Below, piece after piece: positions 33,952 through 57,300 of a DNA stretch of 64,000 bases. Positions within the stretch are counted from its first letter, which is position 1; every line of letters begins with the position of its first letter. The stretch is taken from IMG/VR virus record IMGVR_UViG_3300025751_000013, positions 1 to 64,000 of that record. One strand, given 5' to 3'. This stretch comes from a virus. Lineage: Duplodnaviria > Caudoviricetes. The position numbers and the translations under genes are program-made. The notes under the pieces were generated by a model that was not told the DNA's origin, ran no database searches, and worked only from the letters and a program-made list of their open reading frames with translations.

Positions 33952-36900
33952 ATGTCAACAATAAGACTCAAGAGAAGTGCTGAGCCGGGTAAAATCCCAT
34001 CGATTGAACAACTAGAACTAGGCGAAGTAGCTGTCAATACACATGACGGCAAAATGTTTATGAAAAGAGACCAAAGTGGTAACTTTGCTATAAAAGAATT
34101 TGGCGCAAGAGACGCCGCAAGTAATGTGTTTTACGTAACACAAGACGGATCTAATACTAACGATGGTAAAACAATAGGAGACGCATTTGCGACTATTGAT
34201 TACGCTTTAAAAAATATTCCAGAGGGATCAACACTATATGTAAAGGCTGGACAGCACACAGTTGACAATCCAGTTAAACTTCCGGCATTTGTTGCTATTG
34301 TTGGTGACTCACTTAGAACTACATTTGTACAACCAAAAAATCCAGCAGAAGATATATTTTGGGTTAACAACGGTTGTTTCCTTAAAGATATGCGCTTTAA
34401 TAACTACATTGCACCTAGTGCAGCAGTTTCGTTCCCCCCAGATGGAAGCGCCGGATCAATTATGTGTTCACCGTATGTACAAAACTGTACATCATATACT
34501 ACAACTGGTACAGGTATGCGAGTTGACGGATCAGTTGTTACTGGCCTACGCTCAATGGTTGTTGACGCCTATACACAGTATAACCAGGGTGGTATTGGTG
34601 TGCATCACCTTAACAGAGGTAACACACAGCTTGTTTCGATCTTTACAATTTCATGTGATATTTCGATTCTTTGCGAAAGCGGCGGCTTTTGCTCACTAAC
34701 TAACTCAAACACATCATTTGGTAACTACGGACTTATTTCCGATGGTTATAGTGAAGCACTATTTGGTGCGTCTGCTGGTGCTAACATTAGTAGAAACTCG
34801 ATGTTTATGAATGACCTAGTAACGGTTCCATTTATTCAAAACGCATCTGTGTTTAGTGGCACTGGTGAAGTTTATACAATTTCAGAAGCTACTCCGATTA
34901 AAGTCGGTCAAGGTGTTGTAACTGGACCAACACTAACCCAAGAAGACAGTGATTTATTATTTGCTAGAGAAAGAATTTTAGCCAATAGAGAAGTAATTCA
35001 AAGATCAACAGTTAACTTTGTGAAAGATAATTATCAAACAGGCGGCGAATTTGACGAAGCTAAATGTGCTAGAGATAGTCAACTTATACTTGATGGTGTA
35101 GGTTTTGATGTTGCACTAGATACAAACTTTAACAGTGTTTATAATGGTATTTCGTATCAAAGAGCAAATGCTAAATTTGTTATTAATACCCAGTTTGAAG
35201 CAACAAAAGGCGCAATTGATTTCTTAAAAGCCGAAACAGCAGCTTTACTAAGTGGTACTTCATTAACTAGAGCTAATGCAGGATTTGACGATGTAAAAGG
35301 AATTCTTGACGGTGGTGTAATAAGCACTACAGTTCCAGGAGATGGTGTAGCCGACGCACTTACATTTAGTTCAACACTAGGTGTAACAGATGGTATAAAT
35401 GCTAGAACAATTTTACAAGCGAATATTGCATTCTTACAAGCAGAAGTACTTGCATTTAACGATGATTATAATGCAACGGCGATTGCTGCTGACGCTACCG
35501 GTGCAACTACAGTAGTTTATGATAGAGAAAAGTGTCAAAGAGATGTACAATACATTGTAGACGCTCTTTCATATGACGCACAGTATGGTGGCAATAGCGC
35601 AACAGTATCGGCTATGAATTCTTATATTGTTGGTACAGGAATTGATCAACTTCCAGCAGATCAAAGAGATCTTACTGCTGATTCATATGCTCACTTAGCA
35701 GATATGGTTGCAGCAATTTTAACTGATCCGTCAGTTGATCCTGGTACAAAATTAAGTGCTGGTAGTCCAGACAATTCCGCAGCGGTTACTGCTGCATCTC
35801 TTTCAGGTACAATCGAAGCACTTGTAGATACATTTGCAGGAGTATTAATTGAAGATGCAACGCCGGCTGGCACACCAACTGCAACTATTCCAGCAGTAGT
35901 AACTCCAAATGTTACAACATTGGGTGTAGCAGCAGAGTTTACAACATCGCAAACTGCAATCACAAATGCGTCTGCACAAATTGTAGATGATGTAATTGCA
36001 TTTGTTAATCAAGAATATAATTTCTCTTTCAACCAAGAAAAATGTGCAAGAGATTTACAAGAAATAATTGATGCAGCTAAAATAGATGCTGTTACAAACT
36101 CTTTGTACAATCAAACTGTAGTTGGTTTAACATACACAATGGAAAGTAGTGCTTATCTACTTAACTTACAAAAAACACAAACCGCAGCAGGTATTCAATA
36201 TGCTAGAGATTTAGTTACAGCAGACGGTAATTTTACAGATACTACAGACAGAACTGAATTTATTAATGCTGTAAACGAAGTAATTAACATATTAAATACA
36301 GGAACTCCAACATCTGACTTAACAACTGGTACTTTTGCAACTAATTTTCCAACAAGCACTGATTATTCTAATGCAGCAAGTCGTGCAGCCGCAGCTGAAG
36401 CAATAATAAACGGTATTCCTTCTTTACAGACTGATGCTCTAACTTTCCTACAGAATGGGAACGCAGGTGGTGGTTTTGATTTTTCAGCCCAAGCCGGAGA
36501 ATTTTCAAGTTTAGCTAGTGGAGGTACTGTTTCATCAGATGAACTAAAATCAGTATACCAAGATATGGTAAGAGATGGAACATTTACCAAGTGTCAAAGA
36601 GACGTGGCTTACTTAGCACAAGCAGTAGCATTTGATACAATGTATGGTGGTAATAGTGCAACTTTGCGTGTAGCAAAATCATACTTTGTAGGTGCAATTG
36701 CAGGTGACGACGATACTGAAATATCACAACTAGGTGGCGGACAAAAGAATGCAACACTTGCACTATATGCCTTCTTGGCAGTACAAATTGCGGCAGCTGT
36801 TAGCGCTGCGTCAGCAAATGCAGGGTTAGGTTCGGGCTCTGGTGCATCAAAAACAATTAATCAATTAGTTGCAGTTGTTACTGATCATATTGACGCAGAC

Positions 36901-39900
36901 GGTGTAGCATTAGCTTCTTTAGATACAGTTATACTTGCCAGCCCTGCCGACGACGATGAAATTCTAACAGTATCTGAAATTGAAGCAGTTGACGACGAAG
37001 CAATTAATGATACAATATTCTATCTACAAGATGCATTTGTACTACTAGACTTTAACGAGTCTAAGTGCTACAGAGATACAGGTATTATTATTGATGCTGT
37101 TGTAGATGACATGGTACTAGGAACAAATTATAAATCAGTAGTTTCTGGTAGAACATATTCAATGGATTCAGCGGCACTTGTTATTGCGGATCAAAAAGTA
37201 GAAACATTAGCAGCAATAAATCATGCAAGAGACGAAGCACTAGGATTTATCAATGACTTTTCGTCTAATGCTTCAAAAGTTACAGCATATAATAGAGTAC
37301 AGTCAAACTTTAATTTGATTTCTGATTTAATTAGTAAGTCAGAGTATGCATTTAAATCATATACAGTAGTAGACGCAGATTACAATCCGACGGCTGCTGG
37401 TAACTATGGTAGTACTTCTACTCCTGCAAACAGAGTTATGACATTAACAATTGGCCAGCATAGTTTTACAACATCAGATACAGTTGTAATTGCTCCTAAT
37501 AGTTTAACATTCCAGTGTTATTCAAGTGGTGATAATGAGTTCCAAACTATTACACATCCAAGAGAAGTAGCAGGTCAAAGTGCAGATCCAAATGCAGTAT
37601 CTCCAGGTTCAGATCCAGCATTTGAAACTCCAGTAGATATTGTTGCAGTTACAGACACTACAATTACAGTAGACGTTGGTGTAAATACTGGTGCTGGTAA
37701 TGTTGAGCATACATTTATTAGTGCTACAGAAAATGGTATAACATATGGTAATTCGTTTATTAATTATCCAATGCCAACAAATGTTCTACCAGAAATAAAC
37801 AGAGCGTTTACAAACATCAAGAAAAACAAAGCATATTTGATTGAAGAAGCAGTTGCTCATATCGATCAAAACTATCCGTTACTAGGATACGACAGAGGAA
37901 CATGCGAAAGAGATATCGGACTTATAATTGATGCTGTGTCATACGATGCAATGTTTGACTCAAACTTCCGTTCAATTACAGCTGGTAAAGCATATCTAAG
38001 AGGTGTTATACAAGTTATAACAGGTGATGTACTTGTAGATGAAACAACTACTACAACAGGTATTACTGGTACACTATTAACAATGGATCCAACTAAAACA
38101 GTAGTAAATCCAGGTGACGAGTTAACAGTTCTACCAACTGAGCAAAAAATTGCAACACTAGAATCATTTAGAAAACTAAGAGATTTACTTGTTCAGATTA
38201 CATTTGATAATGATACAAAGGCACGTGTAGTAGACCGTATGGATCTTATTATAGATATTGTACAAGATGGCGAATCAGTAATTCCAGCAGTAAGTATTCC
38301 TACAGCAAACATTACAACTAACGACACAGTAAACTATACAGAAAACTTTAATGCAACTGGTGTTCCAGAAACAATTACAAACATTGAAAATTCGAGAGAA
38401 TTTATTATTGCAGAAACAAAGGCATTTATTGATACTAACTTCCCAGCATTATTATCAACTGATGCTAACGGTAATATTGTCCGAGACTATAATGCAAACG
38501 ACAAGTGTGAAAGAGACGTAGGTCTTATATTAGATGCACTAAAATATGACTTAACATATGGCGGTAATATGGAAACCTTAATAGCTGGTAAAGCATACTT
38601 CTCAGATGTTGTTGCATCAGCAGATGGACCAGTTGATTTATTAGGTTCACGTTCAGTAAACATAGATATTGTTAATGCTGGTGGTATTCAACTGATTAAT
38701 CCAATTACAATTACAACATCTATTAAACATGGCTTAGTTGATGGATCACAAGTAACACTACTAGATATTAGTGGCGTTGTTGAACTAACAGGTAAAACTT
38801 TCTTTGTTAAGAAAGTAAGCGACACAGTGTTTGAATTATATGATGATGCAGCCCTAACAATCCCATTAGACGGTACTACTGGATTTACAGCATATGCTAA
38901 CTTAGGTGGTACTGTAAGAGTTAATGCAGCAGAAGTAATTGCTACTGTAGAGTCTTATAACTTCCTAGCAGATCTAATATTGACACTAGGTAATGGTGTT
39001 GCTCCAGTTAATCCACAGCAAACAATTGTTACAGCAGGAGCACTGACAACAACTAACAGTCCAAATGGTACTAGAGCAAAATCACTTGTTGACGATATTA
39101 TTACTATAATTGAAAACGATAGCTCTGTTCCAGTTGAGTTGCTTGCAGATCCAAGTTGGGTCACTGGCTACAATGCAACCGAAACATATCCGTTAGAATT
39201 AAATGGCACCGATCTTTATTCAGACTTCTTGATTATGCAAGGTGAAAAAGATGATATACAATCAGAAATTACAAGATTTATTGAAGCAAACTTTGCTTAT
39301 GATAAAAAAGTATGCCGTAGAGATATGGGATACATTATTGATGCTACATTATTTGATGCACTATACAACGGTAACAGTGCAAGTTATGATGCAGCAAGAC
39401 AATACTATACACAAGGTAAACTAGTTATTCCAGCAATCCAGCGTAAAGCAACAGGTGACGCAATGGAACTTCTTAGAAAGCGTATAGGTGATGTACTACG
39501 TTCAAACAGAGTTGTTGCAGAACAACTTCCAACATCGCCGACATTAGTGCTACAAGATACAACTACTCCAGCAGCCACAATTACTGAAATTCTAAGAATT
39601 CAGAAAAACTTTGATGTACTTGAAAGTCAAATACGTAGAGATTATTTCATCAATGACTTTATTGATGTAATTGATCCTGACTTTAATCTTCAAACAGAAA
39701 CAGCAAACAAAATTAGAAATAAGATACTTGCTGAAAAAGAAAACCTACAGGTTAAAACAATTAAATTTATCGATACAACATTTAGAGAATTCCGTTTTGA
39801 TAGAGAAGTTTGCTCAAGAGACGTAGGACTTATTTTAGATGCAGTTGCAATGGATGTTGCACTAGGTACTAACTATAATTCAATTATTGCAGGTCTATCA

Positions 39901-42900
39901 TATCAAAGAGGTAGTTTGTCAATTGGTACTGTTAAAGATGAGCAGAAGCCACAAACAATAGCAGCTATTGAATTCCTAAAAACAGAAACACTAGCAATTT
40001 CAGGACTGTCAGCAACAGGTATTGCAAGAGCAACAGCAGCATTTGATGAAATTATAGACATCTTTACAAATGGTGAAACAAGTACTAGAACAGCAGCAGA
40101 TGCAATTACATATCCAGTTCCGACAGGTGTTGATACTAACAAACAAAACTCACATGACTTGTTACGTGCTAACAGAGACTTTATATCTGAAGAGATTATT
40201 GAATGGATTGAAGATAACTTTACAAACTTTGAATATGATGAGTTTAAGTGTGAAAGAGACACAAGAATTATACTAGATGCAATTGCACTAGACGCAGCTC
40301 TAAATACAAACTATAACACAATTACAGTAGCACTTGCATACAAGCGTGTAAATGCACAACTAGTAATTACAGATCAGTTGATACAAACTGTAGCAGCTAT
40401 GGATTATCTACGCAAATTAGTAGACGAAAACAAAGATCTAAGTGTTATTGGTCGTGCAAGAATGACACGTTTAATCGATGATATTATAGAAATTGTACAA
40501 TCAGATACAACTGACTTAGATGTATTTGACAGTACAAACTTTGATAGTACACTACTTAACGCATACGAAAACATTGAAATGAATGCACCTAAAAATGCAA
40601 CACAAGATGAAATCGATGCCAAAGAGCAGTTAAAACTTAACAAAGAATTCTTAGCAAGTGAAGTATTAGCGTTTATCAACTTAAACAATCCGACACTAGA
40701 CTATGTTGAAGCTAAGTGTAAAAGAGACGTTAAATTCTTACTTGATGCAGCAGCATTTGACTTACTATACGGTGGTAACTCAGCAACTGTACAAGCGGCT
40801 AATAGCTACTTTGTAGGAACAGCTAACCAGTTAGGTGATGACGAAGTACAAGCAACAATCGATGCTTATAACCATTTAAAAACTGTTATTGAACCAGTTG
40901 TACTTGCAACTAGTGAAGATAACAATCCAGTATATGTACCAACAGCTGGTAATAGTATGCGTCAAATTATCGAAAGTGATCCAGGAACAGCTACTGAAGT
41001 TGCAGCTATTCAAGCATCGCTTGATATTGTTATTGCTAGAATACAAGGCACACCGACACCAACACTAGTTAAGCCAAGTTTAACAGGTGCTGATGCTAAC
41101 TTAATTAAAGACTTTAATGAAATATCAGAGACTGCTTCAGTAGAAGCACAGAAAGTTGTAGATTATGTAAATGATCAATTTGCAAACTTTACATATGATA
41201 TTGACAAGTGTGCAAGAGATGTTAAACTAGTTGTACTAGGCGCAGCAATTGACTTAGAGTATTCAACTAACTATAACAGTGTAACTAATGGTCTTTCATA
41301 CCTAAGAGGAAATGCTAAGAAAGTTTCAAACGCATTCCAAAAAGCAATTACACTAGCCGCACTTGATAAACTAAAAACACTAGCAGCTACAACTATCGGA
41401 ACAGGTACAGGTTATGCAGCAGCAGTAACAGCAGTTAATGCAAGTATTGATACAGTAAAAACAATATTTGATGAAGGTTTAGTTGGCATAACACCAACAA
41501 ACGCTGTATATGATCCAACAACAGGTGTTATGGATCTTACAATTGGCGAGCATACATTCATACAAGGTGATACAATTACACTAGAGCCAGGCAGCTTGAA
41601 ATTTACTTGTGCAAGTGACGGAAACAACGTTGTACAAGCATACCCAAGAACAAGTGATCCGGCATTTAATTATACACTAAAAATTATTGACACTGGTAAA
41701 CTAACAATAAGTGTAAACGTTGGAGTATCATCAGAAACATCAGCGCACACATTTATTACAGCAGATGAAAAAGCAATTAAAACTGGTGCTCTTCCAAATG
41801 CAGTTCCGGCGCTAACATTTGCAGGTATAGATGCAACAAATGACTCGGCTTATGCAGCAAAAGCAATACTTGCTAACAAAGCGTTTATTGCAGCAGAGAT
41901 GTCAGCATATGTTGTAAATGATCCTAACTTTATACTAGTTGGTAACTACGATGAAACAAAATGTCGTAGAGATTCAAATAATATATTAGATGCAGTTGCA
42001 TTAGATTTGCGTACAGGTTCAAACTATAACTCACTATATGCAGGTATTGCATACACAAGAGCAAATAGTGATTATGTAATTAGTGCCCAAAAATCAGCAA
42101 CAATAGCAGCTATTGAATTCTTAAGAGATACTGTAAAAGCACTATCAAATGTTGATGCAGCAGCAGACACAAGAATTGATTCACTATTTGCAATTATTAT
42201 CGCAGCAATTAACAGTGGCGCTACAAGCACGTTGCTTCCAGGAGGCGCTACAGGCGTTCCACTATTAAGTCTTCCAACTCCGAATACTCCAATTGCAGGC
42301 GGCGCAGATGCAGCAGCACGTTTAACATATAACAGAGATGCGTTAGCAGAAGAAGTACTAGAACACATTAACCAAAATGCAAATGCTATATACCTATCTA
42401 TGGATCAAGCTAAATGTTCAAGAGATGTAAAATACATTGTTGAAGGACTAGCACATGATGCAGTATATGGTGGTAACATTGGTGCTAAACTAAATGGCGA
42501 AGCATACTTTGTAGGTAACGATACTGAACAGTTAGGCATTGGTCAAAGATCTGCAACAGTAGCAGCATATCAACATCTTGCACAAGTAATAGAGCAGTTA
42601 GTCGGCGCAGGTGTAGCTGATGCTGGATTCACTAGCGTAATATTAGTAGCTAACCCAACTCAAGCGTGGAGTGATAATTCAGTACCTAATGCAGCAACAA
42701 TAGCAACTTACTTAGCAGACAGTTCAACTGGGTTAATTGAAACTTGCATAGTTGCACCTATTAATGCAAACAAATTGGCTAACTTCTACACACCAACAGC
42801 GGCATCATATGTTCCAACTACAGGTGTACTAACACTTACTGTAACTGGTAATCCGTTCTCAAATGGTGATACAATTAGACTAGCAGAACGTAGCATTGGA

Positions 42901-45900
42901 TTTAAATGTCAAAGTGATGGATTTAGAAAAGTATTCTACTATCCAAGAACAACTGATCCAGCACTTAACTCAGACTTAACAATAAGTAACGTAGTAGGTG
43001 ATAGTTTTGACGTCCAGATTGGTGTATCATCAGAAGAAAGTACACATCAGTTCGTAGGACCAGCTACAAATGCAATCATTGATAGCACATTACCAGATGA
43101 TGTACAACCAGCAAGTGCTCAGTATGTAACAACTGTATCGTTCACAGATGCAGCAACAGCAATTGTTGCAGGATCAGGAACAGCAGTAGATTCAACAATA
43201 TCTTATATCAATTCAGATCTAAGCTTTAACCAAACTAAGTGTGAAAGAGACACAGGTTACATTGTTGAAGCATTAACACATGATACATTGTACGGCGGCA
43301 ATTATGCAACTACACAAGCAGCTCTAGCTTATAGAGTTGGTGTCGCAGGACAGTTAGGTAGTAATTCACCTGAAACTACAGCAACAGTAGCAGCATATGG
43401 TACACGTTTACCAGCAGTAGTACAAGCAATTGTTCAAGGCGATGCACTAACACCGTCAACAGGCAATTCAGTGACTCAAGTTGCAAATGCAAATACAGTA
43501 AGCCCGTGGACTAATGCTAATGCAACTATTGCAGCAGATATTCAAAATATTGTAGATGTTATTGAGCATGGCGGTGATCCACTATCAGTTGATGCTTCGA
43601 TGATAGCAGAAACTAACATAACTGAAGGTACAATATATGATGCAGAATCAGGTGTACTAACACTAACACTTAGCGGCACATCTACAGGACTAGTAGCAGG
43701 TACAAGCACAATTAGACTAGCACGTAATAGTTTAACATTTACTTGTGCAAGTGATTCACATGCTACTTCATTAACATATCCAGACAAAGATAGTTTTGGT
43801 TATGATAGAGAATTAAGAGTATTAAGTGTTGCAGAAGCAGGTAACACAACTATTACTGTTAACATAGGTAATGCACGTAAACTAGGTGCTACTTCAGCAG
43901 ATAGAATACACAGATTTGTAAGTGCAGCAGCTAATGCAGTTGTATTACCAATTTCACCAACAAGACCAACTATAGCAAACACATTTGCTACATCACTTGT
44001 AACAAAAGCCGATGCAGCAAGCGATAACTTTGGTGATTTGATAAATGCATATCTACTATCAGACTTCCCAACAAGCACATACGATAGAACACGTTGTAAG
44101 CGTGATGTAGGATTTATTGTAGACGCTCTATCATACGATGTACTATATGGCGGTAACAGCGCAATGCGTGAAGTTGCAAGAAGCTACTTTAGCTTTGGTC
44201 TAAACTTACTAGGTGATGATTCTAAAGAAACAGATGCAACAATATTTGCATATGAGCACCTAAGTAGTATTATTGGAGAGATTGTACAAGGTGTACAAGT
44301 AGGAAAAGCTACAGGTAACTTATTAGTACAAACATATGATACAGCAAGTACACTAGCAGAAGCAGCAGTTGCTCAAACACTACTAAAACTAGTTACAGAT
44401 ACAATTAGAGATAGAAGTGTTAATAAGCTAGATGAGCAAGAGCTACCAGATATTACTTGGGCAGCGTCAGAATTCCAAAATGACTTTGCAAGCATTACTT
44501 TTAACAAGTCAGTAGCACAAGCTGATACACTACAGTTTATTGACGATAGATACACAACATTTAGTTACGATCAGTTTAAGTGTTCAAGAGACGTTGGATT
44601 GATCTTAGATGCTGTTTTAGCTGATATGGTAATGGGTGGTAACTACCAGTCATTACTAGCAGGAAGCAGTTATTACAGAGCAAGTGCGTTTATTGTAAAA
44701 GGCGATCAGCTACCAGAAACAATTGAATCAATCAAATTCTTGAAGAAAGAAGTTGAGAAAATCTTAACAGATCCATTGTTTACAGCAACAGTTGTTCCAG
44801 GTACATATCCTAACCCAACTATAAGAGCTATTACTCCGTTAGAAGCTATTGAAAATGCTAAAACACTAACTGAAGTATTTGGTGATACGCAAGAGTATGC
44901 AGATCTTATTGCAAGATTTAATGATGTTCTTAGAGTTATGGAAAATGGACTAACTAACGCAGCTGAAGATCAAATACAATTTGTTGCTCCAACTGGAATT
45001 ACAGGAACAAGAACTAATGCTAAAGACATATTACTTGCAAACAAAGAATTCTTTGTTGAAGAGTCAGTGGCGTTTATCAAAGAAAACTTCCCACTAATTG
45101 GATATGACAGACAGACTTGTGAAAGAGATGTAGGACTAGTTCTTGATGCTCTAGGGTTTGACTTAATGTTTGGTTCAAATATGCGTAGTATTACAGCAGG
45201 TAGATCTTACTTTAGAGAAGGCGCTGCTGTTGTAAGTGCAGATCAAAAGAAAGCAACACTAGCAGCATTTGAATTCTTAAAAGTTAAAGCAGCAGAAGTT
45301 GTAAGCAGTGCAATACTATCAAATGGTTCTTACGTAGCACCAGGCGGAAATAAAGAATTTATCATAACAGTAGGTGCTGACTCATATGAACAAAAACCAA
45401 CTGGTGTATTCTACTTAGATGGTATAGAGCAGCCGATAATAGAACTAGATCCAGGTGCAGTATATACCTTTAATCAAGATGATCCAACTAACGCTTACTT
45501 TGGCGATAATCGTCATCCTCTAGTGTTTAGCACAACAAGAGATGGTGATAATGCAGGTGGTACAACTTATGACACTGGTATTGCTTACTACTTAGACGGT
45601 GTATCAGTTGACGAAGCACAGTACGAAAGAGGATTTGCTAGAGCAACACTACGTAGAGTAGAACTTGATCTTAGAGGCAAGTATACAACAGAACTATACT
45701 ATGCAGGCGGCGCCCGCAAAGGTATGGGTAACTTAATCTACGTAAAAGCAAAAACAACAGGTGAACCGATTAAAAAGTCTATACAAGATAATATGAATGT
45801 TATTCTTGCACTTCTTGATAGAGGTAATGTTACTTGGCAGCCATATGATGCAGAATATAAAACAGTAGGCACAGATACAAGTGGTAATCTAAAACTTTAC

Positions 45901-48828
45901 ATTAGAGAAAATCCATTTAAGGTCGGAGATAAAATTAAACTAAAACCAAATAGTTTGACATTTACATGTGCATATGATACTACTACTCCGTTATCATATC
46001 CAGATTATAACGGCGGAACTGGTGCAGCTCCAGCATGGCAAGCAGATTTAGAAATCACAGCAGCAGATGATGTTAGTATTACTGTTAACGTTGGAGATGC
46101 CGCAGGCGCAGCAGCAACTAGTGTTCATACATTTGTAAGTGCAGATATTGATACTATTAGTTTAGTTCCAGGATATGTAACACCAAGCCCAACTGGTTAT
46201 GATGCAGGAACTTACCTAAGTACATATAAACAAGCTAGAGATAATATCGAAGCTAACAGAGAGTTTATAATTGCAGACGTAATCGGATTCATTGAAACTG
46301 ATGATACATTACTAGGATTTGACAGAGATACTTGTGCAAGAGATACTGGACTAATAATTGATGCAATATCATGGGATTTAGTATTTGATTCAAACCAACA
46401 AAGTATTACAGCAGGTAGAGGATATCTAAGACAAGATGTAGGAGTTCTTCCAGCAACTCAAACAGCAGCTACAACAGCAGGATTTGATAGACTAAGAGAC
46501 TTACTTTTGGCTCTAGTAATTCAAACTGGTGCAGATGCAGAAAGAGCAAAAGAAAGTATTTCGGCTAACATTGGTCTAATAAATGATATCATTACTAATG
46601 GTGATAGTCAAACAATTCCATCTAGAAAACTTCCAGCACCAACAACAGGCGCAGCAATTGTTCCAACTGCTATTACATATACTCCAGCTGATGGTTTAAT
46701 GGTTATTACATCAGAAGCGCATGGTTTAAATGTAGGCGATTATGTAATGATTGCAGACGAGAGTTTAACATTTACTTGTGAAAGTTCTCTAGGAAGTGGT
46801 ATACTAGAAAAAATTAGTCATCCAAGATCAAACGAGTATGCAAGCCGTAGAGCAATTATTGTTTCAGCAGTAGCTGATGCCAATACATACACTATTAACA
46901 TTGATCCAAATCTTGAAAACAGTGGCGACGGTAATGTTGCTCATACATTTGTAAGTGCAAGCGCAAATGCAATTAAGAAAGCAGAAGATGCTAATGGTAA
47001 ATTAGATGTATTCTTTAACATTAGCGCACAGCGTACATGGATTATCGATGCAGTAGAAGACTATATTGAAGATGCTACCGGATTAAATCAACCAGCTGGT
47101 AGTTGGAATACCAAGTGTAAAGAAGACATAGGTCTAATAATTGACGCAGCATTGTATGACTTAATGTACGGTACCAATCTTGAAACACGCACAGCAGCAC
47201 AAGCATATACAACCGATGCAGGTGTATTACTACTAGGTGCAGACCCAACTGAAAGATCTAACACTATTGCAGCATATGTATATCTAGCAGACTTGCTTGA
47301 GCAAGTTGGTAATGATGTAGTTACAGAAACTTTATATGGCGATACAGCAACAGCTGGATTTACAGCAACTGGTACAGTACCAGGCGGCAACGGATCTCCT
47401 GCACTAGCAGCTCATGATAGTGTTGAAGTTGTTAGAGCTTACCTAGATGCATATGTTACAAGTGCAACTGATAATGCAACTGACAAAGCAGCAGCAGAAG
47501 CTACACTTCCTGCAGTTGCTTATGGTTCGAGAACTTGGTCTTCAACTACACAACAAGCTATATTCAACCAATTCCAAAGTGAACGTCAAGAATTGCAAGA
47601 TGCAGTTACAGCGTTTATTGAAGAGAACTTTGCTTATGTGCAAGAAAAATGTAAGAGAGATGTAGGCTATATTCTAGATGCAGTTTATTACGATATGACA
47701 TATGGTGGTAATAGCGAAACGTTTACAGTTGGTAAGAGTTACTTCTCCGACGAAGGTGTAAATCAATTAAGAACACTAAGAGAAGTAAATGCAACTCAAG
47801 CAGCATACGGACACTTAAGAGACTTAGTAGAAGCAGTTGCCATTGGTGATGACACCGTGGCGTTGATTGCAACTCCTAAACAGACAGATATTGCTTATAA
47901 TTCAACAGCAGTTGATCAGGGAGGCAGCAATGCTGGTAGTACCCAGGCTAAATTACTAATAAGCAATGTGTTAAGTTTCTTAGATGATACTATTAATAGA
48001 ACAAATGTAATACCAACTGTAGCTGAAACTACTCCATCTACATCATGGGTAGCAGCTGATCTAGTAACAGCCGCAACTGCACTAACTGATGCAAAGCGTA
48101 CAGTACAAGATGAAACAACTGTATTCATTGAAGAAAATTATGCTTACATTAAATCTAAGTGTGAAAGAGATATTAGATACATTGTAGATGCAGTTGCATA
48201 CGACATATTCTATGGTGGTAACTCACAAGCACATCTAGCAGCAGAGCAATATTTTGACGGAGGTAATTATCAAATACCAGTTCCAACAAAGAATGCTACA
48301 GTACAGACATTTAAATATCTACTAGAAATAATGTCAGATGCTGTACGTAACATTACTGTGTCTGCATTACAAAATAGAGTAATCCAAACTACAACTGGCG
48401 CATCTGCAACAACGTTTGAAGCAGATCGTATTAAGGACTTGTTAACAATTATTGTTAATCTAGTACAGCATGGTTACTCAAGTCAAGTTACATTTGATGT
48501 TAATATCACAACAATACCGAGAATTAACGAAAGTGTAACATTCCACCAAACAAGTTTGATTACAGCAAGTGGACAAACATTTGAGTGGGTTGGATCCGGA
48601 ACTAATATTCAATCAGCGGTTCCATACAAAGGCGGACAACCAGTTGAAGCACAACAGGTAGTGGAAAGTAACGAAGGTAAAGTTTACTTTACAAGTACTG
48701 ACCAAAAAGGTGACTTCAAAATTGGTAACAGCTTAACTATTGAACGTGCGTCTGGTACGATTACTGGACAGACTTTTGATAGATCACTATTCGCGGTGTT
48801 AACACCATACATCTTGTCACTACAGTAA
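33952..48828 (+). CDS. Giant fibre/tailspike-like protein: Mtd-N-like anchor, beta-helix, 22 phycobiliprotein-like Cys repeats and accessory beta domains
   Basis: 4958 aa; N-terminal TIRLKRS..P....L..GE.AVNT.DGK; FYV..DGS..NDG..AFATI beta-helix cap; 22 C-x-(R/E)-D repeats; late promoter ATAAATA at 33889-33895. Confidence 0.8.
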   Translation: MSTIRLKRSAEPGKIPSIEQLELGEVAVNTHDGKMFMKRDQSGNFAIKEFGARDAASNVFYVTQDGSNTNDGKTIGDAFATIDYALKNIPEGSTLYVKAGQHTVDNPVKLPAFVAIVGDSLRTTFVQPKNPAEDIFWVNNGCFLKDMRFNNYIAPSAAVSFPPDGSAGSIMCSPYVQNCTSYTTTGTGMRVDGSVVTGLRSMVVDAYTQYNQGGIGVHHLNRGNTQLVSIFTISCDISILCESGGFCSLTNSNTSFGNYGLISDGYSEALFGASAGANISRNSMFMNDLVTVPFIQNASVFSGTGEVYTISEATPIKVGQGVVTGPTLTQEDSDLLFARERILANREVIQRSTVNFVKDNYQTGGEFDEAKCARDSQLILDGVGFDVALDTNFNSVYNGISYQRANAKFVINTQFEATKGAIDFLKAETAALLSGTSLTRANAGFDDVKGILDGGVISTTVPGDGVADALTFSSTLGVTDGINARTILQANIAFLQAEVLAFNDDYNATAIAADATGATTVVYDREKCQRDVQYIVDALSYDAQYGGNSATVSAMNSYIVGTGIDQLPADQRDLTADSYAHLADMVAAILTDPSVDPGTKLSAGSPDNSAAVTAASLSGTIEALVDTFAGVLIEDATPAGTPTATIPAVVTPNVTTLGVAAEFTTSQTAITNASAQIVDDVIAFVNQEYNFSFNQEKCARDLQEIIDAAKIDAVTNSLYNQTVVGLTYTMESSAYLLNLQKTQTAAGIQYARDLVTADGNFTDTTDRTEFINAVNEVINILNTGTPTSDLTTGTFATNFPTSTDYSNAASRAAAAEAIINGIPSLQTDALTFLQNGNAGGGFDFSAQAGEFSSLASGGTVSSDELKSVYQDMVRDGTFTKCQRDVAYLAQAVAFDTMYGGNSATLRVAKSYFVGAIAGDDDTEISQLGGGQKNATLALYAFLAVQIAAAVSAASANAGLGSGSGASKTINQLVAVVTDHIDADGVALASLDTVILASPADDDEILTVSEIEAVDDEAINDTIFYLQDAFVLLDFNESKCYRDTGIIIDAVVDDMVLGTNYKSVVSGRTYSMDSAALVIADQKVETLAAINHARDEALGFINDFSSNASKVTAYNRVQSNFNLISDLISKSEYAFKSYTVVDADYNPTAAGNYGSTSTPANRVMTLTIGQHSFTTSDTVVIAPNSLTFQCYSSGDNEFQTITHPREVAGQSADPNAVSPGSDPAFETPVDIVAVTDTTITVDVGVNTGAGNVEHTFISATENGITYGNSFINYPMPTNVLPEINRAFTNIKKNKAYLIEEAVAHIDQNYPLLGYDRGTCERDIGLIIDAVSYDAMFDSNFRSITAGKAYLRGVIQVITGDVLVDETTTTTGITGTLLTMDPTKTVVNPGDELTVLPTEQKIATLESFRKLRDLLVQITFDNDTKARVVDRMDLIIDIVQDGESVIPAVSIPTANITTNDTVNYTENFNATGVPETITNIENSREFIIAETKAFIDTNFPALLSTDANGNIVRDYNANDKCERDVGLILDALKYDLTYGGNMETLIAGKAYFSDVVASADGPVDLLGSRSVNIDIVNAGGIQLINPITITTSIKHGLVDGSQVTLLDISGVVELTGKTFFVKKVSDTVFELYDDAALTIPLDGTTGFTAYANLGGTVRVNAAEVIATVESYNFLADLILTLGNGVAPVNPQQTIVTAGALTTTNSPNGTRAKSLVDDIITIIENDSSVPVELLADPSWVTGYNATETYPLELNGTDLYSDFLIMQGEKDDIQSEITRFIEANFAYDKKVCRRDMGYIIDATLFDALYNGNSASYDAARQYYTQGKLVIPAIQRKATGDAMELLRKRIGDVLRSNRVVAEQLPTSPTLVLQDTTTPAATITEILRIQKNFDVLESQIRRDYFINDFIDVIDPDFNLQTETANKIRNKILAEKENLQVKTIKFIDTTFREFRFDREVCSRDVGLILDAVAMDVALGTNYNSIIAGLSYQRGSLSIGTVKDEQKPQTIAAIEFLKTETLAISGLSATGIARATAAFDEIIDIFTNGETSTRTAADAITYPVPTGVDTNKQNSHDLLRANRDFISEEIIEWIEDNFTNFEYDEFKCERDTRIILDAIALDAALNTNYNTITVALAYKRVNAQLVITDQLIQTVAAMDYLRKLVDENKDLSVIGRARMTRLIDDIIEIVQSDTTDLDVFDSTNFDSTLLNAYENIEMNAPKNATQDEIDAKEQLKLNKEFLASEVLAFINLNNPTLDYVEAKCKRDVKFLLDAAAFDLLYGGNSATVQAANSYFVGTANQLGDDEVQATIDAYNHLKTVIEPVVLATSEDNNPVYVPTAGNSMRQIIESDPGTATEVAAIQASLDIVIARIQGTPTPTLVKPSLTGADANLIKDFNEISETASVEAQKVVDYVNDQFANFTYDIDKCARDVKLVVLGAAIDLEYSTNYNSVTNGLSYLRGNAKKVSNAFQKAITLAALDKLKTLAATTIGTGTGYAAAVTAVNASIDTVKTIFDEGLVGITPTNAVYDPTTGVMDLTIGEHTFIQGDTITLEPGSLKFTCASDGNNVVQAYPRTSDPAFNYTLKIIDTGKLTISVNVGVSSETSAHTFITADEKAIKTGALPNAVPALTFAGIDATNDSAYAAKAILANKAFIAAEMSAYVVNDPNFILVGNYDETKCRRDSNNILDAVALDLRTGSNYNSLYAGIAYTRANSDYVISAQKSATIAAIEFLRDTVKALSNVDAAADTRIDSLFAIIIAAINSGATSTLLPGGATGVPLLSLPTPNTPIAGGADAAARLTYNRDALAEEVLEHINQNANAIYLSMDQAKCSRDVKYIVEGLAHDAVYGGNIGAKLNGEAYFVGNDTEQLGIGQRSATVAAYQHLAQVIEQLVGAGVADAGFTSVILVANPTQAWSDNSVPNAATIATYLADSSTGLIETCIVAPINANKLANFYTPTAASYVPTTGVLTLTVTGNPFSNGDTIRLAERSIGFKCQSDGFRKVFYYPRTTDPALNSDLTISNVVGDSFDVQIGVSSEESTHQFVGPATNAIIDSTLPDDVQPASAQYVTTVSFTDAATAIVAGSGTAVDSTISYINSDLSFNQTKCERDTGYIVEALTHDTLYGGNYATTQAALAYRVGVAGQLGSNSPETTATVAAYGTRLPAVVQAIVQGDALTPSTGNSVTQVANANTVSPWTNANATIAADIQNIVDVIEHGGDPLSVDASMIAETNITEGTIYDAESGVLTLTLSGTSTGLVAGTSTIRLARNSLTFTCASDSHATSLTYPDKDSFGYDRELRVLSVAEAGNTTITVNIGNARKLGATSADRIHRFVSAAANAVVLPISPTRPTIANTFATSLVTKADAASDNFGDLINAYLLSDFPTSTYDRTRCKRDVGFIVDALSYDVLYGGNSAMREVARSYFSFGLNLLGDDSKETDATIFAYEHLSSIIGEIVQGVQVGKATGNLLVQTYDTASTLAEAAVAQTLLKLVTDTIRDRSVNKLDEQELPDITWAASEFQNDFASITFNKSVAQADTLQFIDDRYTTFSYDQFKCSRDVGLILDAVLADMVMGGNYQSLLAGSSYYRASAFIVKGDQLPETIESIKFLKKEVEKILTDPLFTATVVPGTYPNPTIRAITPLEAIENAKTLTEVFGDTQEYADLIARFNDVLRVMENGLTNAAEDQIQFVAPTGITGTRTNAKDILLANKEFFVEESVAFIKENFPLIGYDRQTCERDVGLVLDALGFDLMFGSNMRSITAGRSYFREGAAVVSADQKKATLAAFEFLKVKAAEVVSSAILSNGSYVAPGGNKEFIITVGADSYEQKPTGVFYLDGIEQPIIELDPGAVYTFNQDDPTNAYFGDNRHPLVFSTTRDGDNAGGTTYDTGIAYYLDGVSVDEAQYERGFARATLRRVELDLRGKYTTELYYAGGARKGMGNLIYVKAKTTGEPIKKSIQDNMNVILALLDRGNVTWQPYDAEYKTVGTDTSGNLKLYIRENPFKVGDKIKLKPNSLTFTCAYDTTTPLSYPDYNGGTGAAPAWQADLEITAADDVSITVNVGDAAGAAATSVHTFVSADIDTISLVPGYVTPSPTGYDAGTYLSTYKQARDNIEANREFIIADVIGFIETDDTLLGFDRDTCARDTGLIIDAISWDLVFDSNQQSITAGRGYLRQDVGVLPATQTAATTAGFDRLRDLLLALVIQTGADAERAKESISANIGLINDIITNGDSQTIPSRKLPAPTTGAAIVPTAITYTPADGLMVITSEAHGLNVGDYVMIADESLTFTCESSLGSGILEKISHPRSNEYASRRAIIVSAVADANTYTINIDPNLENSGDGNVAHTFVSASANAIKKAEDANGKLDVFFNISAQRTWIIDAVEDYIEDATGLNQPAGSWNTKCKEDIGLIIDAALYDLMYGTNLETRTAAQAYTTDAGVLLLGADPTERSNTIAAYVYLADLLEQVGNDVVTETLYGDTATAGFTATGTVPGGNGSPALAAHDSVEVVRAYLDAYVTSATDNATDKAAAEATLPAVAYGSRTWSSTTQQAIFNQFQSERQELQDAVTAFIEENFAYVQEKCKRDVGYILDAVYYDMTYGGNSETFTVGKSYFSDEGVNQLRTLREVNATQAAYGHLRDLVEAVAIGDDTVALIATPKQTDIAYNSTAVDQGGSNAGSTQAKLLISNVLSFLDDTINRTNVIPTVAETTPSTSWVAADLVTAATALTDAKRTVQDETTVFIEENYAYIKSKCERDIRYIVDAVAYDIFYGGNSQAHLAAEQYFDGGNYQIPVPTKNATVQTFKYLLEIMSDAVRNITVSALQNRVIQTTTGASATTFEADRIKDLLTIIVNLVQHGYSSQVTFDVNITTIPRINESVTFHQTSLITASGQTFEWVGSGTNIQSAVPYKGGQPVEAQQVVESNEGKVYFTSTDQKGDFKIGNSLTIERASGTITGQTFDRSLFAVLTPYILSLQ
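34960..48480 (+). repeat. Array of 22 helical C-x-R-D protein repeats (11 A-type, 11 B-type)
   Basis: Cys codons start at 35065, 35533, 36043, 36592, 37066, 37903, 38506, 39313, 39811, 40249, 40717, 41209, 41962, 42415, 43240, 44095, 44581, 45118, 46333, 47116, 47650 and 48160. Confidence 0.9.
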
Positions 48829-51331: not shown

Positions 51332-54300
51332 ATGTCTTTTATAAGCACGACAAGAGTAATAGAGAACAATCAAGAGGTTTTATTCGAAGGCCCATTAGAT
51401 AAAGAAAGTAATGTACACACAGTTGCCGTACTGAATGAAGGTGTTTCGCCTAATTCTACAACCGATCCAATTAAAGTTACATTAAGTCTTTATGATGCAT
51501 CTGAGCCCGCGACAAGACCTTTTGCGATACTAGAAGTTGCTCCAGGTACTGATGCACAGTATACTAAAGTTATAAACATACGTCCTGGAGATCAACTAAG
51601 AGCCGAAACTGATGGTGGTGAAGTCACTATTATGATCGGCGCTTTCGTTGATGAAGATACTCTAGTAACAAGTATTTTTAATATAACAGGGCAGTATGAT
51701 CATACAGTTACATATCAACCATATGATGTTGCATATTATCTTGGGTCAACATATGTTAATACAACAGTAGACCAAACTGCTGTATATCCTACACAAGTTA
51801 ATGGCGGTTGGACACCTTTAGGTTCTGGATTTAACGCATATGGTGAATTTGATCCACTTGTATTATATCCGCCGTTGTCTGTTGTTAAGTGGGCTAACAA
51901 TGTTTATGTTACAGTTACAGGATCTCCTGTTGGAGTTTATCCGAATGATTATAACAGTACGTGGATTTCTTTTACATCATTAACAAGTGACGAAATTCCA
52001 GATACGTCTGGTGTAAGTGCAAACGTTGCCGCAAGTATTACAATACTTAATAACAGATTAAACACACTTACTACAACTGAAGTCCCAGAAGCATCTGATG
52101 CCGATTTAGAAGCAGCATCAGGATTTGAAAATGCTTACTTTACTAGAGCTAGAGCTCGTGAATCTATTAGTGTAACAGGTGACTTAATTTATGATGTTAA
52201 CACTGGTGTATTATCGGCTCAAACATTAACACAAGATGATGTTAATATATTCATTGACAATAGAGTGTCAAAATCATTTGTTGATGCATTAGGAGTTGAT
52301 GCAGATACAGTTGATGGAATTGAAGGCACAGTATTAGCACGAACTGATATATCTCCAACATTTAGTCAAAACATTATAGTTTCAGGAGAAATGCGTGGCG
52401 ACCTACGTGGTAATGTATTAGCTGACGATAGTAGTATTATAATCAATCATGCTACAAAAGAAATTAACGGACGTTTCGAAGGTACACTAATTGCAGCAAA
52501 TAGTGATGTTATTTTAAATACAGGTATAGATGGTTTTGACGCTACGTTCACTGGTACTACATTTGGTGAACATAGAGGTGATGTTTTATCAGACGATTCG
52601 AATGTAATCATTGATGCTAGTTCAGGATTAATAAGCGGTGACTTAGAAGGTAACGTCACTGCAACCTTTGGTGTGTCACGATTTAATGATATTATTACTG
52701 ATAACATTATTGTTCAAGAAGAATTACAAGTTGCTAACATTTTAGGTAACATTACGTCAACAGGTGTTAGTACATTTAATAACGTTGATATTAATGGCGG
52801 TTATATTGATAACGCTGTTATAAACACAACTAATATTACAGGTACAACTATTGTAGGTACCTATATAGAAGCACAAACTGGTGGATTTAGAGGTGATATT
52901 CTATCCACAGGTACATCACGTTTCAACGACTTGATCGTTACAGGTGATCTAACATTTAACACATTAGAGGTACAAGCACTTGCTGACTTTAAATCTCTTG
53001 TAAATATCGACGGCGGACTTACAGTTGGCGGAACACTTAACGTTACTGGTGGAACTACATTTGGTAATATTAATGTTACTGGTGGACAAATTAGTGGCGT
53101 TACTTTGGGTAGTGGATCTTATCCAGTTGATATCGTTGCAGATGATGTAACAATTTTAAATTCATTTACTGCTACAGATGTTACTGCTGAATTTTCGACA
53201 TTAATAGTTACAGACGAAATGACAGGTGATGTCAGCGGTAACTTGAGAGGAAATGTATTATCACAAGATGGTACAACTGTTATAATAGATGCATTTGCTG
53301 GAATTATCAGAGGCGACTTAGTCGGCGACACAGTAGGACAACATACTGGTAATGTTGACGGTAATGTTGTAGGTAATGTAACAGGTAATGTTACTGCTGC
53401 TGCTGGACTATCGTCATTCTCTAGTATGAATGCACAAATTGGTGACATTGCTGCTCTTGAAGCAGGCTCATTAACAGTTACTGGTGCAGCAAGTTTTACA
53501 GGTGATCTAACATTTGACACACTACAAATTGCTTCATTAGCAGTTAATAACACATTGACAGTTTCTGGTATTTCAACCCTTGGATCAGTAGACATCGGCG
53601 GCGGCACAATGGATGCTGTAACAATCGGTGGCAATGTGCCTGCAAGTGTTACTGGTACAATTTTTACCGGTGACAAAATGTTTGCTGATTTATTTACAGG
53701 TAGCCTAAAGGGTGTCGTAGAAGGATCAGTTGAAGGTGACTTATACGGTAATGTCCTAGGATTAGATAGTTCAATCGTTCTAAATACAAGTACTGCAAGA
53801 GCTACATTAGATGCTGATGTTACTGGACAGATTGATGCAACAGCAAATGGTGGCGGCGAAAGTAGATTTGATGATATAACCATTACTGGTGTATTTTCGT
53901 TACAAGGCGGCGGCCAACTTACGGGTGATCTAACAGGTAATGTAGTAGGTGACGTTACAGGTGATGTATATGCAAGTAACGGAGATAAGATTTTAGAAAC
54001 AGGCAACGGAACAACTATTCCTGCAAAGTTAACAGGTAATGTAGAAGGCGAAGTATTAGGTACATTTACTGGTACAGCTTCTGGAGACTTCACAGGTGAT
54101 GTATTTGCTTACGATTCAACTAAAATGCTTGATGCGTTTTCTAATATATTGAGGGGTGATTTAGTTGGTAATGTAAGTGGTAATGTTTTAGGCGATTTAA
54201 CAGGTAATGTTAACACTACAGGAACTCAAAGCGATGGTTTCTTTAGAAACTTAACAGTTGAAGATACACTTACATTTCCATCATTGAATATTTCGACAAT

Positions 54301-57300
54301 TGATTCAGATAACATTGATGTTGATAATGCAATATTAGATGTTGTAACAATCGGCGCTGGTATAACTACTGGTACAATTGACAACACTACTATTGGTGCT
54401 ACAACCCCAAGAGGTGGTGTATTTACTACATTACAAGGTGCAATTATTGAAGCATCGAGTGAGTTTAGAGGTAACATTGTATCATCAGGATCTTCTAGAT
54501 TTAACGAGCTTATTGTTACTGGCGATTTTGTAGCAAACTTACGTGGTGATATTATTGCTGAAGATTCAAGTGTAATTGTTAACAATGCAACAAAAACATT
54601 TTATGGAACACTACAAGGTACAACAGTTGGAACACTACAAGGTAATGTTATAGCAACTTCAGGACTAAGCGAATTTAATAGTATAAACGTAGCACAAGAA
54701 ATATCAGGTACATTAAGAGGCGATGTAGTTGCACCTGATAGTACATTGTTAATTGATATATCTAGTCAAAATATAAACGGTAACGTAATAACAGCAACAG
54801 GTGGATTTAGTGGAGAGATTACTGGAACACTAGTAGGAGACATTAAGGCTACTGGTGGCCAGGTTGTTTTAGATTCAGGTACTGATGGCACAGATGCAAC
54901 ATTTGCAGGAAACGTAACAGGTAACGTTTTAAACACACTAGGTGAAACAGTACTAGATGCTAATGCTGAAAGACTTACAGGTACATTAGCAGGTAATGTA
55001 TACGCAATAGACGGAATATCACAAATACTAGACTCAGGCACAGATGGTACTGATGCTGTATTTACTGGACAAGTAATCGGAGATGTTACTGGGAATGTCA
55101 CAGCCTCGTCAGGTGTTTCTAACTTTAATAATATAGTTATTGCTAACGAAGCAGTAGGTAATTTTAAAGGTAATGTTCTTGCAGCAGATAGTTCTGTACT
55201 TGTTAATTATCTTGACTCGTCGATCACTGCTGCTACGATTACAGCAACAGGTAATTTTGTAGGTGACGTAATCGGTAATGTCGATACAAGAACAGTTGAT
55301 GTTAACACAAGAAGTTATTTCCAAAACATCACAGTGTTGGGCGAAATTGACCTTAGTGGCGCATCAGGTAATATTACTGCTGATATTGAAGGTACTTTAA
55401 AAGGTAATGTTGTTTCTACAACAGGTGACCCTAATGCTGCTGATGTATTATTATTAGATGCTGCTGGTAGATCGATTCTTAATATGGCATCAATTAGTTC
55501 TAATGAATTTACTGGTGACGAATTTATTGGTGATTTCCTTGGAGATTTATATTCTGCAGACGGATCATTTAGAGTATTAGATACAGGTGCAACAGGAAAT
55601 CAAGCATATTACATCGGTGATATGAGAGGTAATGTACAAGGTAACTTACTCGGTGATGATTCGTCGGTAATTGTAAATTATGTTTCGGGTGACATTAATG
55701 GTAGAGTAGTTAGTTCTTCTCAAGGATTTCAAGGTAAAATTGAAGATCCAAATAACAATATGTCCTCTTTGTATGACTTAACAATTCGTAATAATTTATT
55801 TGTTGAAGGCACAACTACTACCGTTAATACTGATAACTTAGATATTAAAGATAATACAATTGTTTTAAACAAAGGACAAAGCGACGGAGTTACTGGTGTT
55901 GTACTAGGTACAGCAGGTATCCAAATTGACAGAGGCAACGGCGTAGATGCAAACCTACTTTGGACGGAAGACGGCGGCGCTGGCTATTGGGACTTTACAA
56001 ATACTGCTCAAGTAAGAGGTGCATTTAGAGGTAATGTCACAGGTGATGTTTATAGTCCCTTTAATTCAGGAACTCCTATTCTAGACACAGGTACTGCAAC
56101 TTTACCTGCTACATACATAGGTAATGTTGTAGGTGATATAGAAGGTAACGTAACTGTTGGCGCTGGCTTGTCTAGTTTCTTTAGCGTAAATGTTGAAGAA
56201 GAAATTGCTGGTAATTTACGTGGTAACGTATTAGCAAACGACAGTACTAAGATTATTGATTTTATTAACAGTAATATCTATGGTGCTACAATTTCAGCAA
56301 CTGCTGGATTTAGTGGTGATGTATTTGGTAATATTGATGCTAGAGGAGAAAGTTCTGCAAGTTATAGTTATTTCCAAAACCTTAGTGTATCAGGTGACAT
56401 CCAATTTGATAGTTTAAACATTGCTACACTTGAAGTAGGTACTGATTTAAACGTAGGTAACAATGTAGATGTTACTGGTCAAATTACAGCAGGTAGTGTA
56501 GATATTGCTGGTGGTGAAATAGACGGCACAATTATAGGTTCAAATGTTGCTTCTGCTGCTAGTGTAACTACTCTTACAGTAACCACTGGTGATATTAATG
56601 TTACTCAAGGTACTATTAATATTACACAAGGTAACTTGAGTGCTGATACTATTTTTGCTGTTACTGATTTTAGAGGTAATTTAGTAGGTAATGTTACTGG
56701 TAGTTTATCAGGCGGCACTGTAACAGGTGACGTTTATGGTAACCTTTATCGCCCAGGAGGCACTACTCCTGTTCTTAATACTGGTACAGGCGGAGTTGAA
56801 CCTCGACTTTACGGTAATGTAACAGGTAATGTTACAGGTGACGTATTAGGTGATGTAACAGGTAACGTGCAAGGTGTATTATACGGTAGTGTTATAAGTG
56901 AAGATAGCACAACAACTATTGTTAATGCTTCGTCTGGTTTAATTACAGGTGACATTAATTCATCAGGTACATCTACTTTTAATAATATTGTTGTTGAAGG
57001 CGCATTAGACTTTACAACATTTGCTCTTAACGAAATTACAGTTAACACACTTCTACAGGTTGACGGCACTGCTAACTTAACAGTAGCAAATATATTTGCT
57101 GGTAATATTGATAACACTAGAATAGGCGTTACAACTCCTTCAACTATTAAGGGTACTGTTATTGAAGCAACTACTAAGTTTGTCGGTGACATTGCAGGTG
57201 AAGTAGATGGTAACGTTACTGGAGACTTAAGAGGTAATATAATAGGTGAAGATAGTTCAGTTATTGTAGATAATGATCTTAAAAGATTTACAGGTAATTT

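Follow-up and report, generated by a model that had tools for sequence, protein, structure and literature searches.

Bracket-like order of two classes of phycobiliprotein-like domain in a giant phage fibre protein

We analysed a 64,000-nucleotide stretch of DNA (positions 1 to 64,000 of IMG/VR record IMGVR_UViG_3300025751_000013, a virus of the Caudoviricetes; hereafter the window), part of a 109.9-kb virus record that is estimated to be 30% complete. It holds, as a single open reading frame (ORF), the gene of a fibre/baseplate-type virion protein of 4958 amino acids (aa), here called P0001. The shaft of this protein is built of 22 repeat units, each marked by a C-x-[R/E]-D motif (C-x-R-D in 21 of them, C-K-E-D in unit 20), and all the motifs lie inside the ORF, as an earlier note on this DNA had reported, with 146–405 aa from one motif to the next (Table 1). 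The units belong to two classes, A and B, and their order, ABABAABBAABAABBBAAABBB, is a balanced bracket (Dyck) word if A is read as the opening and B as the closing bracket, which yields the pairs 1-2, 3-4, 5-8, 6-7, 9-16, 10-11, 12-15, 13-14, 17-22, 18-21 and 19-20. We lean, if only slightly, towards a reading in which each A domain finds its partner in a B domain further along the same chain, the docking being antiparallel and free of crossings, so that five arms of one to three layers result.

The order and the pairs listed above were already those of the earlier note, and both were reproduced by two classifications that left no unit ambiguous. Hidden Markov models (HMMs) built from the A and B sets of that note assigned every unit with a margin of more than 8 bits. 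A non-circular classification started from some 2,900 units of 120 giant homologues and 77 viral loci (the latter gathered with a 5-unit B alignment as query), the cores of which were aligned, reduced to 563 non-redundant sequences and placed in a tree. Here the 11 A units of the window all fell in one clade of 187 units (support 0.93), with T/S at position Cys+19, and the B units, with G at this position ('YGGN'), formed the remainder of the tree. HMMs built on the two sides of this tree gave a bimodal A-minus-B score difference and returned the same 22-unit string; they replaced models trained on the window protein alone, for which the score difference was continuous across the family. The A clade itself splits into A1 (units 1, 3, 5, 9, 10, 12, 13 and 17) and A2 (units 6, 18 and 19). 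A tree of the 22 window units alone is compatible with a single A/B split, though weakly (77/0). The two clades of 11 with mirrored trees that had been foreseen were thus found by half: A is one clade, but B appears from the family tree to be the ancestral remainder, with no clade of its own, and the mirror signal between non-adjacent partners is not significant in the window (P=0.35).

Given 11 A and 11 B units, a balanced word has a chance of 1/12, so that the window string is unremarkable by itself. One might hence put the order down to chance and shared ancestry, with A and B as mere sequence sub-families that have no role in pairing, a view that also draws on the common descent of many of the relatives and on the failure of B to form a clade. 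The relatives (more than 400 at an expectation value E<=1e-5 in one protein search) bear directly on this. When the survey was limited to complete proteins in which every unit could be classified and two or more were A, 33 distinct mixed architectures were obtained. Twelve of these, with 4–22 units, are exactly balanced bracket words (for example AAAABBBAABBB, AAAAABBBBAAABBBABB, AABBAABBAAABABBB, ABAABBAB and AABABBAAABBAABBBAAABBB); 29 leave no A unmatched, A outnumbers B in none, and the usual departure from the rule is a bracket word with one or two surplus B units. Loose clustering gave 13 lineages, with bracket words in five independent ones, and the product of the 1/(n+1) chances is about 4e-5, although the shared ancestry of the architectures makes this and the other probabilities quoted here upper-bound impressions rather than exact tests. 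The window's own lineage holds seven different bracket words. That the rule is kept in five separate lineages and in seven rearranged variants inside one of them, that an excess of A over B was never observed, and that AB and AA neighbours are modelled differently (see below) all argue against chance and common descent as the whole explanation, which we regard as highly improbable.

The most telling result is the orthology of individual units. In the relative P0039 (16 units, AABB AABB AAABABBB), units 5A, 6A, 7B and 8B match window units 9A, 10A, 11B and 16B as reciprocal best hits; window units 9 and 16, which lie 1,428 residues apart, correspond there to the outer pair of a plain AABB arm, and window units 9, 10 and 16 have their reciprocal best hits in the AABB arm of L071 (L071:6692-11713; 1,674 aa, 8 units, AB AABB AB) as well. 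Window units 12-15 (AABB), between 11 and 16, are therefore a balanced block that is absent in P0039 and L071. The adjacent units 7A and 8B of L071, 140 aa apart, are reciprocal best hits of window units 17A and 22B, and since these orthologues are neighbours, window units 18-21 (AABB) lie between units that adjoin elsewhere. In both P0039 and P0018, window units 5 and 8 have their reciprocal best hits in the outer pair of AABB-type arms, and window units 17, 18, 21 and 22 in the two outer layers. The frames 5/8, 9/16, 17/22 and 18/21 recur in P0018 and P0039, and their inner content differs. The 20-unit relative P0014 is without units 3-4 (AB). All of the inferred gains or losses, six or more, are balanced blocks. 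This is the pattern predicted if whole cassettes were inserted between existing partners, the mode of growth that the earlier note had proposed; the comparison bears it out directly in that balanced blocks were gained or lost between conserved outer partners, insertion and loss being indistinguishable.

Distances between the units carry a further signal. With the nested pairing, the correlation between A-A distances and the distances of the partner B units was positive in 10 of 10 proteins and in the window was r=0.36 (P=0.017 vs random pairings); no consistent correlation was obtained when the i-th A was paired with the i-th B. Because the innermost pairs are neighbours and may share context effects, the test was also run on non-adjacent pairs only, and the combination of eight proteins gave P=0.014. 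The earlier note had in addition matched subtypes of A to subtypes of B, a co-variation that is weak when this protein is taken by itself. Its first match, of units 6, 18 and 19 with units 7, 21 and 20, stands for most of its members: the sub-clade of 6, 18 and 19 is solid (92/86 and 97/89 in the 22-unit tree; a clade of 46 in the family tree) and units 7 and 21 fall together in a clade of the family tree, but unit 20 groups instead with units 4, 15 and 16. The second, of units 5 and 17 with units 8 and 22, stands on its B side (8 and 22 group solidly, 93/86) but not on its A side, where the grouping of 5 with 17 is weak and the best match of unit 17 is unit 9. In effect, blocks 5-8 and 17-22 would represent a single duplication event, in which the doubling of A2 was accompanied by the doubling of its nested partner type of B and not of the other B type, roughly a one-in-two observation.

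The structure models indicate that the units have the globin-like core fold of phycobiliproteins. With the AlphaFold2 model of units 10(A) and 11(B) as Foldseek query, the top 50 or so matches in the PDB were all phycobiliproteins. VIA-align superposed unit A on phycobiliproteins with Z 14-16.7 and a root mean square deviation (rmsd) of 2.0-2.5 Å over 120-125 aa (on allophycocyanin-type chains, Z 16.7, rmsd 2.0 Å over 120 aa) and unit B on phycoerythrin and cryptophyte beta chains with Z of about 15. The best two matches of a 22-unit profile among 177,635 PDB sequences were phycocyanin alpha and CpcA, at sub-significant E values of 0.17 and 0.61, and the register of the profile on phycocyanin alpha places C-x-R-D on the bilin-binding Cys84-x-Arg86-Asp87 of helix E; a phmmer search of the PDB sequences with units 9-11 gave no match. 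The phycobiliprotein family PF00502 exceeds its cut-off of 22.2 bits in the close homologues P0014 (33.8 bits, E=4e-8) and P0010 (33.3 bits), and is not listed for P0001 at E<=1. Across the family the Cys is almost invariant: of 2272 units in relatives, 2207 retain the motif, and most of the others keep C-x-x-D. The structural alignments of both units begin at about residues 29-34 of the phycobiliproteins, with some 45 aa ahead of the Cys vs some 83 in phycobiliproteins, so that the N-terminal X-Y helix hairpin of the classical alpha-beta interface is missing from the units.

The same models allow a comparison, suggested in the earlier note, of a pair predicted by the bracket order with one that is not. 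The adjacent AB pair, 10+11, is predicted as one compact and rigid two-domain body, with a predicted template modelling score (pTM) of 0.90, whereas in the adjacent AA pair, 9+10, each domain folds and the relative placement is undefined (pTM 0.51), a gap of which the unequal depth of the two alignments (98 vs 32 rows) may account for part. The difference went as had been expected, and fits heterotypic docking and argues against a generic packing of neighbours. A complex prediction for the distant partners, units 9 (A) and 16 (B), with separate alignments, scored 0.00, the partner fold being uncertain in at least one run, and is evidence neither way.

On the reading that we favour, the shaft would consist of 22 domains with the phycobiliprotein fold, all in one chain and belonging to two classes, of which B would be ancestral and self-sufficient and A derived and dependent on a B. 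A neighbouring A and B would make a compact hairpin module, and further balanced modules would come to lie between older partners, which would remain paired around them; the five arms would be 1-2, 3-4, 5-8, 9-16 and 17-22. Evolution would then gain or lose only balanced blocks (AB, AABB) or a tolerated surplus B, and if growth passed through ABB on the way to AABB, this would account for the occurrence of surplus B and the absence of surplus A. We infer from the order and orthology of the units that partners distant in sequence are in physical contact, and the likeness of an A-B pair to an alpha-beta phycobiliprotein protomer is likewise inferred, as would be any bilin on the conserved Cys-x-Arg-Asp.

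Several observations weigh against this reading, in addition to the shared ancestry and the unequal alignment depths mentioned above. The expectation of the earlier note that homologues with other unit counts would be balanced holds for the 12 balanced words and, as regards unmatched A, for 29 of the 33 architectures, but surplus B is common, and a lineage with 34-36 units ('BABB...') breaks the rule, with one A and three B unmatched. There are also all-B sub-families with 13-23 units, odd counts included, and an odd-count all-B protein implies that a shaft can be built from these domains without A-B pairing; the cultured cyanophage relatives, too, are B-only (P-HM2 'gp7' with 2 units and S-WAM2 gp224 with 7, with zero A). 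All-B relatives and surplus B units make the 'obligate' heterodimers of the earlier note wrong as a family rule, and a better rule would seem to be that each A has a later B and that B can stand alone. In an orthologue with 62% identity (L003:4247-21094), unit 19 is B by the family HMM (ABABAABBAABAABBBAABBBB) and A by the window-trained HMM, and the A2 sub-class lies near the A/B border. The correlation for the non-adjacent pairs of the window taken alone is r=0.17 and not significant. Linker lengths across stacked layers showed no symmetry beyond the within-protein null (r=0.47 vs 0.41, P=0.35); of the layer linkers in the window, three of four match (279/269, 251/275, 179/170) and one does not (405/178). 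Structural support, as given by the models, is confined to the adjacent AB pair. Lastly, phage fibres are usually trimers, into which a folded-back chain would have to fit.

Some of these observations would suit an explanation in which only a neighbouring A and B form a module, the runs of units are free beads, and the balance comes from recombination between similar linkers in AB- or AABB-sized blocks. The restriction of structural support to the adjacent AB pair, the non-significant co-variation of non-adjacent pairs in the window, the all-B shafts, which mean that unpaired domains are viable, and the unmatched linkers across the supposed layers are all in its favour. However, the tandem duplication of an AB block yields ABAB, not AABB or AAABBB, and yet a run of A followed by an equal run of B is common; surplus B is frequent and surplus A never observed; outer partners stay orthologous while balanced blocks vary between them, 17 and 22 being true neighbours in L071; and the non-adjacent co-variation is significant when proteins are combined. 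We therefore hold this explanation to be somewhat unlikely. Another possibility is that A and B pair between the chains of an oligomeric (e.g. trimeric) fibre, for instance in rings that resemble the (alpha-beta)3 discs found in the rods of phycobilisomes. Phage fibres being usually homotrimers and phycobiliproteins forming (alpha-beta)3 rings, as is generally known, this would fit the fibre-type N-terminal domain of P0001, and equal numbers of A and B would also suit rings. But parallel identical chains would set A beside A and would have no need of a bracket order, and pairing within the chain accounts better for the lack of crossings, the conservation of the outer frames and the compact AB model built from one chain, which makes pairing between chains, in our view, very unlikely.

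The closest known system is the alpha-beta protomer of allophycocyanin, phycocyanin and phycoerythrin (PF00502), which shares with the window units the globin-like core fold, the Cys-x-Arg-Asp in the same helix and the existence of two related subunit classes, whose one-to-one pairing we propose for the window as well. Unlike its subunits, the window domains are fused in one 4958-aa virion protein, lack the X-Y helices and are accompanied by inserted beta domains, and their pairing would be within the chain and nested. The bilin-binding domain of the core-membrane linker ApcE (PDB 4xxi; Z 14.8) is likewise a phycobiliprotein-fold domain in a long multi-domain chain, with a loop insertion, and by general knowledge attaches its bilin without a lyase; but ApcE contains a single domain of this kind, with linker repeats after it, and its partner is a separate subunit, ApcB, whereas the window protein has 22 domains of two classes. 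The giant 'gp7' or 'short tail fiber' proteins of T4-like cyanophages (P-HM2 PHM2_086, S-WAM2 gp224) have homologous units in a giant virion protein, but so few of them, and all B, that there is no bracket order. In P-HM2, a Prochlorococcus phage, the relative (L082:3799-17163; 4454 aa, two B units) is annotated gp7 and stands between gp6 and gp8, which locates the domain family in the baseplate module of cultured cyanomyoviruses; gp6 and gp8 were not identified beside the window fibre ORF. Nested domain insertion, with a module in the loop of a parent that still folds, and polymeric globins, with many globin-fold domains in one chain, are familiar. We know of no described case of two domain classes under a balanced-bracket grammar, up to three levels deep and over 22 domains, and we found no account in the literature (PMC10151467 included) of phycobiliprotein-like domains in phage virion proteins or of the A/B order. 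The fold and the pairing principle are thus known, and what this virion protein adds is a variant of them in which two classes are fused and nested under a grammar.

If the rule is physical, it would be a folding grammar at the level of domains, in which the contacts between domains could be read from the order of the classes, much like base pairs from the bracket notation of an RNA, and the restriction of growth and shrinkage to balanced blocks would be explained. The alpha-beta pairing principle of light-harvesting phycobiliproteins would then have been reused in a virus particle, and a large and unstudied family of giant phage fibre proteins would gain a testable architecture. The rule also sharpens the separate question of whether these fibres carry bilins. 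One might speculate that the fibre corresponds to a phycobilisome rod made of one chain, in which each nested A-B pair is an alpha-beta-like protomer with a bilin on its conserved Cys and a pigmented, light-absorbing appendage of the virion is lengthened by the insertion of balanced pairs of domains; we consider this quite unlikely. Were it true, phage-encoded genes for bilin synthesis, perhaps including the hemC of this phage, would gain a structural target. The hemC gene encodes a porphobilinogen deaminase (HemC; PF01379, E=6e-66, with a weak match to the C-terminal domain), and any link between it and the Cys-bearing fibre domains is speculative. It comes directly after gp46/47-like genes, and a gene of the tetrapyrrole pathway is unusual for a phage. 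No bilin reductase, heme oxygenase or CpeT gene was found in the 110-kb record (about 30% complete). Of five large contigs of relatives, two have a heme oxygenase gene (ho1) next to a bilin reductase gene. These are a complete 400-kb phage record (G003:C1:339699-340905) and a 251-kb record (G004:C1:16938-18132), the reductase being ferredoxin-dependent in both, and the two records also encode A/B-type fibre proteins (L068 and L078). In Synechococcus phage S-WAM2 a CpeT-like bilin lyase gene (L083:7100-7624) lies 1.3 kb upstream of the giant protein with 7 B units, which may be coincidence.

Table 1. Coordinates in the window of the fibre ORF, its parts and two other genes
Feature	Position	Strand	Details
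hemC, porphobilinogen deaminase	10168-11007	+	
Giant ORF P0001	33952-48828	+	4958 aa, single ORF; fibre/baseplate-type virion protein
N-terminal non-repeat domain, fibre-attachment type	33952-34929	+	aa 1-326; phrog_17885 'tail fiber protein' matches aa 3-439
Arm 1, units 1(A) 2(B)	34930-35907	+	Adjacent pair; Cys codons 35065, 35533
Arm 2, units 3(A) 4(B)	35908-36930	+	Adjacent pair; Cys codons 36043, 36592
Arm 3, units 5(A) 6(A) 7(B) 8(B)	36931-39675	+	Nested pairs 5-8, 6-7; Cys codons 37066, 37903, 38506, 39313
E1_FCCH-like barrel inside unit 7 (arm 3)	38704-38907	+	E=2e-5, under Pfam's cut-off
Arm 4, units 9(A) 10(A) 11(B) 12(A) 13(A) 14(B) 15(B) 16(B)	39676-44445	+	Pairs 9-16, 10-11, 12-15, 13-14; Cys codons 39811, 40249, 40717, 41209, 41962, 42415, 43240, 44095
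Modelled di-unit 9(A)+10(A)	39676-40566	+	AlphaFold2, alignment of AA di-units; predicted local distance difference test (pLDDT) 80.9
Modelled di-unit 10(A)+11(B)	40114-41049	+	AlphaFold2, alignment of AB di-units; pLDDT 92.8
Arm 5, units 17(A) 18(A) 19(A) 20(B) 21(B) 22(B)	44446-48498	+	Pairs 17-22, 18-21, 19-20; Cys codons 44581, 45118, 46333, 47116, 47650, 48160
Six inserted beta-rich domains			Cys codons 37516, 41608, 42907, 43744, 45967, 46777
C-terminal non-repeat domain	48499-48828	+	aa 4850-4958; C-terminal end of phrog_3442 matches aa 4848-4957
Second giant ORF	51332-64000	+	>4223 aa within the window; continues past window end

The 4958-aa ORF matches the PHROG families 5342, 4527, 701 and 3442 (annotated as tail fiber or virion structural protein). 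Upstream of it are portal and major head genes, as well as Mre11/Rad50-like (gp46/47-type) genes and the gene of a T4 baseplate protein, and also the genes of a 1511-aa protein without known family and of a 454-aa tailspike-like protein. Among isolates, relatives of the repeat region occur exclusively in T4-like cyanophages that infect Synechococcus or Prochlorococcus (20 records); a megablast search of phage genomes with the region gave no match. The second giant ORF of the window has zero C-x-R-D motifs, which rules it out as a carrier of the repeat units, and represents a different type of giant fibre.

Between the units of P0001, six copies of a beta-rich domain of about 100 aa are inserted, in the linkers 5>6, 12>13, 14>15, 15>16, 18>19 and 19>20, each with one conserved Cys in the motif (S/T)(L/I)xFxC. 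Six of the 35 Cys of the protein fall in the N-terminal domain, and all but one of those in the shaft are either a unit Cys or the single Cys of one of the six inserted domains. Units 6 and 7, which are proposed partners, carry an insertion at the same site within the domain, in the stretch that separates the helix following the YGGN/SN motif from the 'T..A(Y/F)' helix; in unit 6 it is a Thr-rich loop of about 35 aa (about 37990-38100), and in unit 7 it is the E1_FCCH-like barrel.

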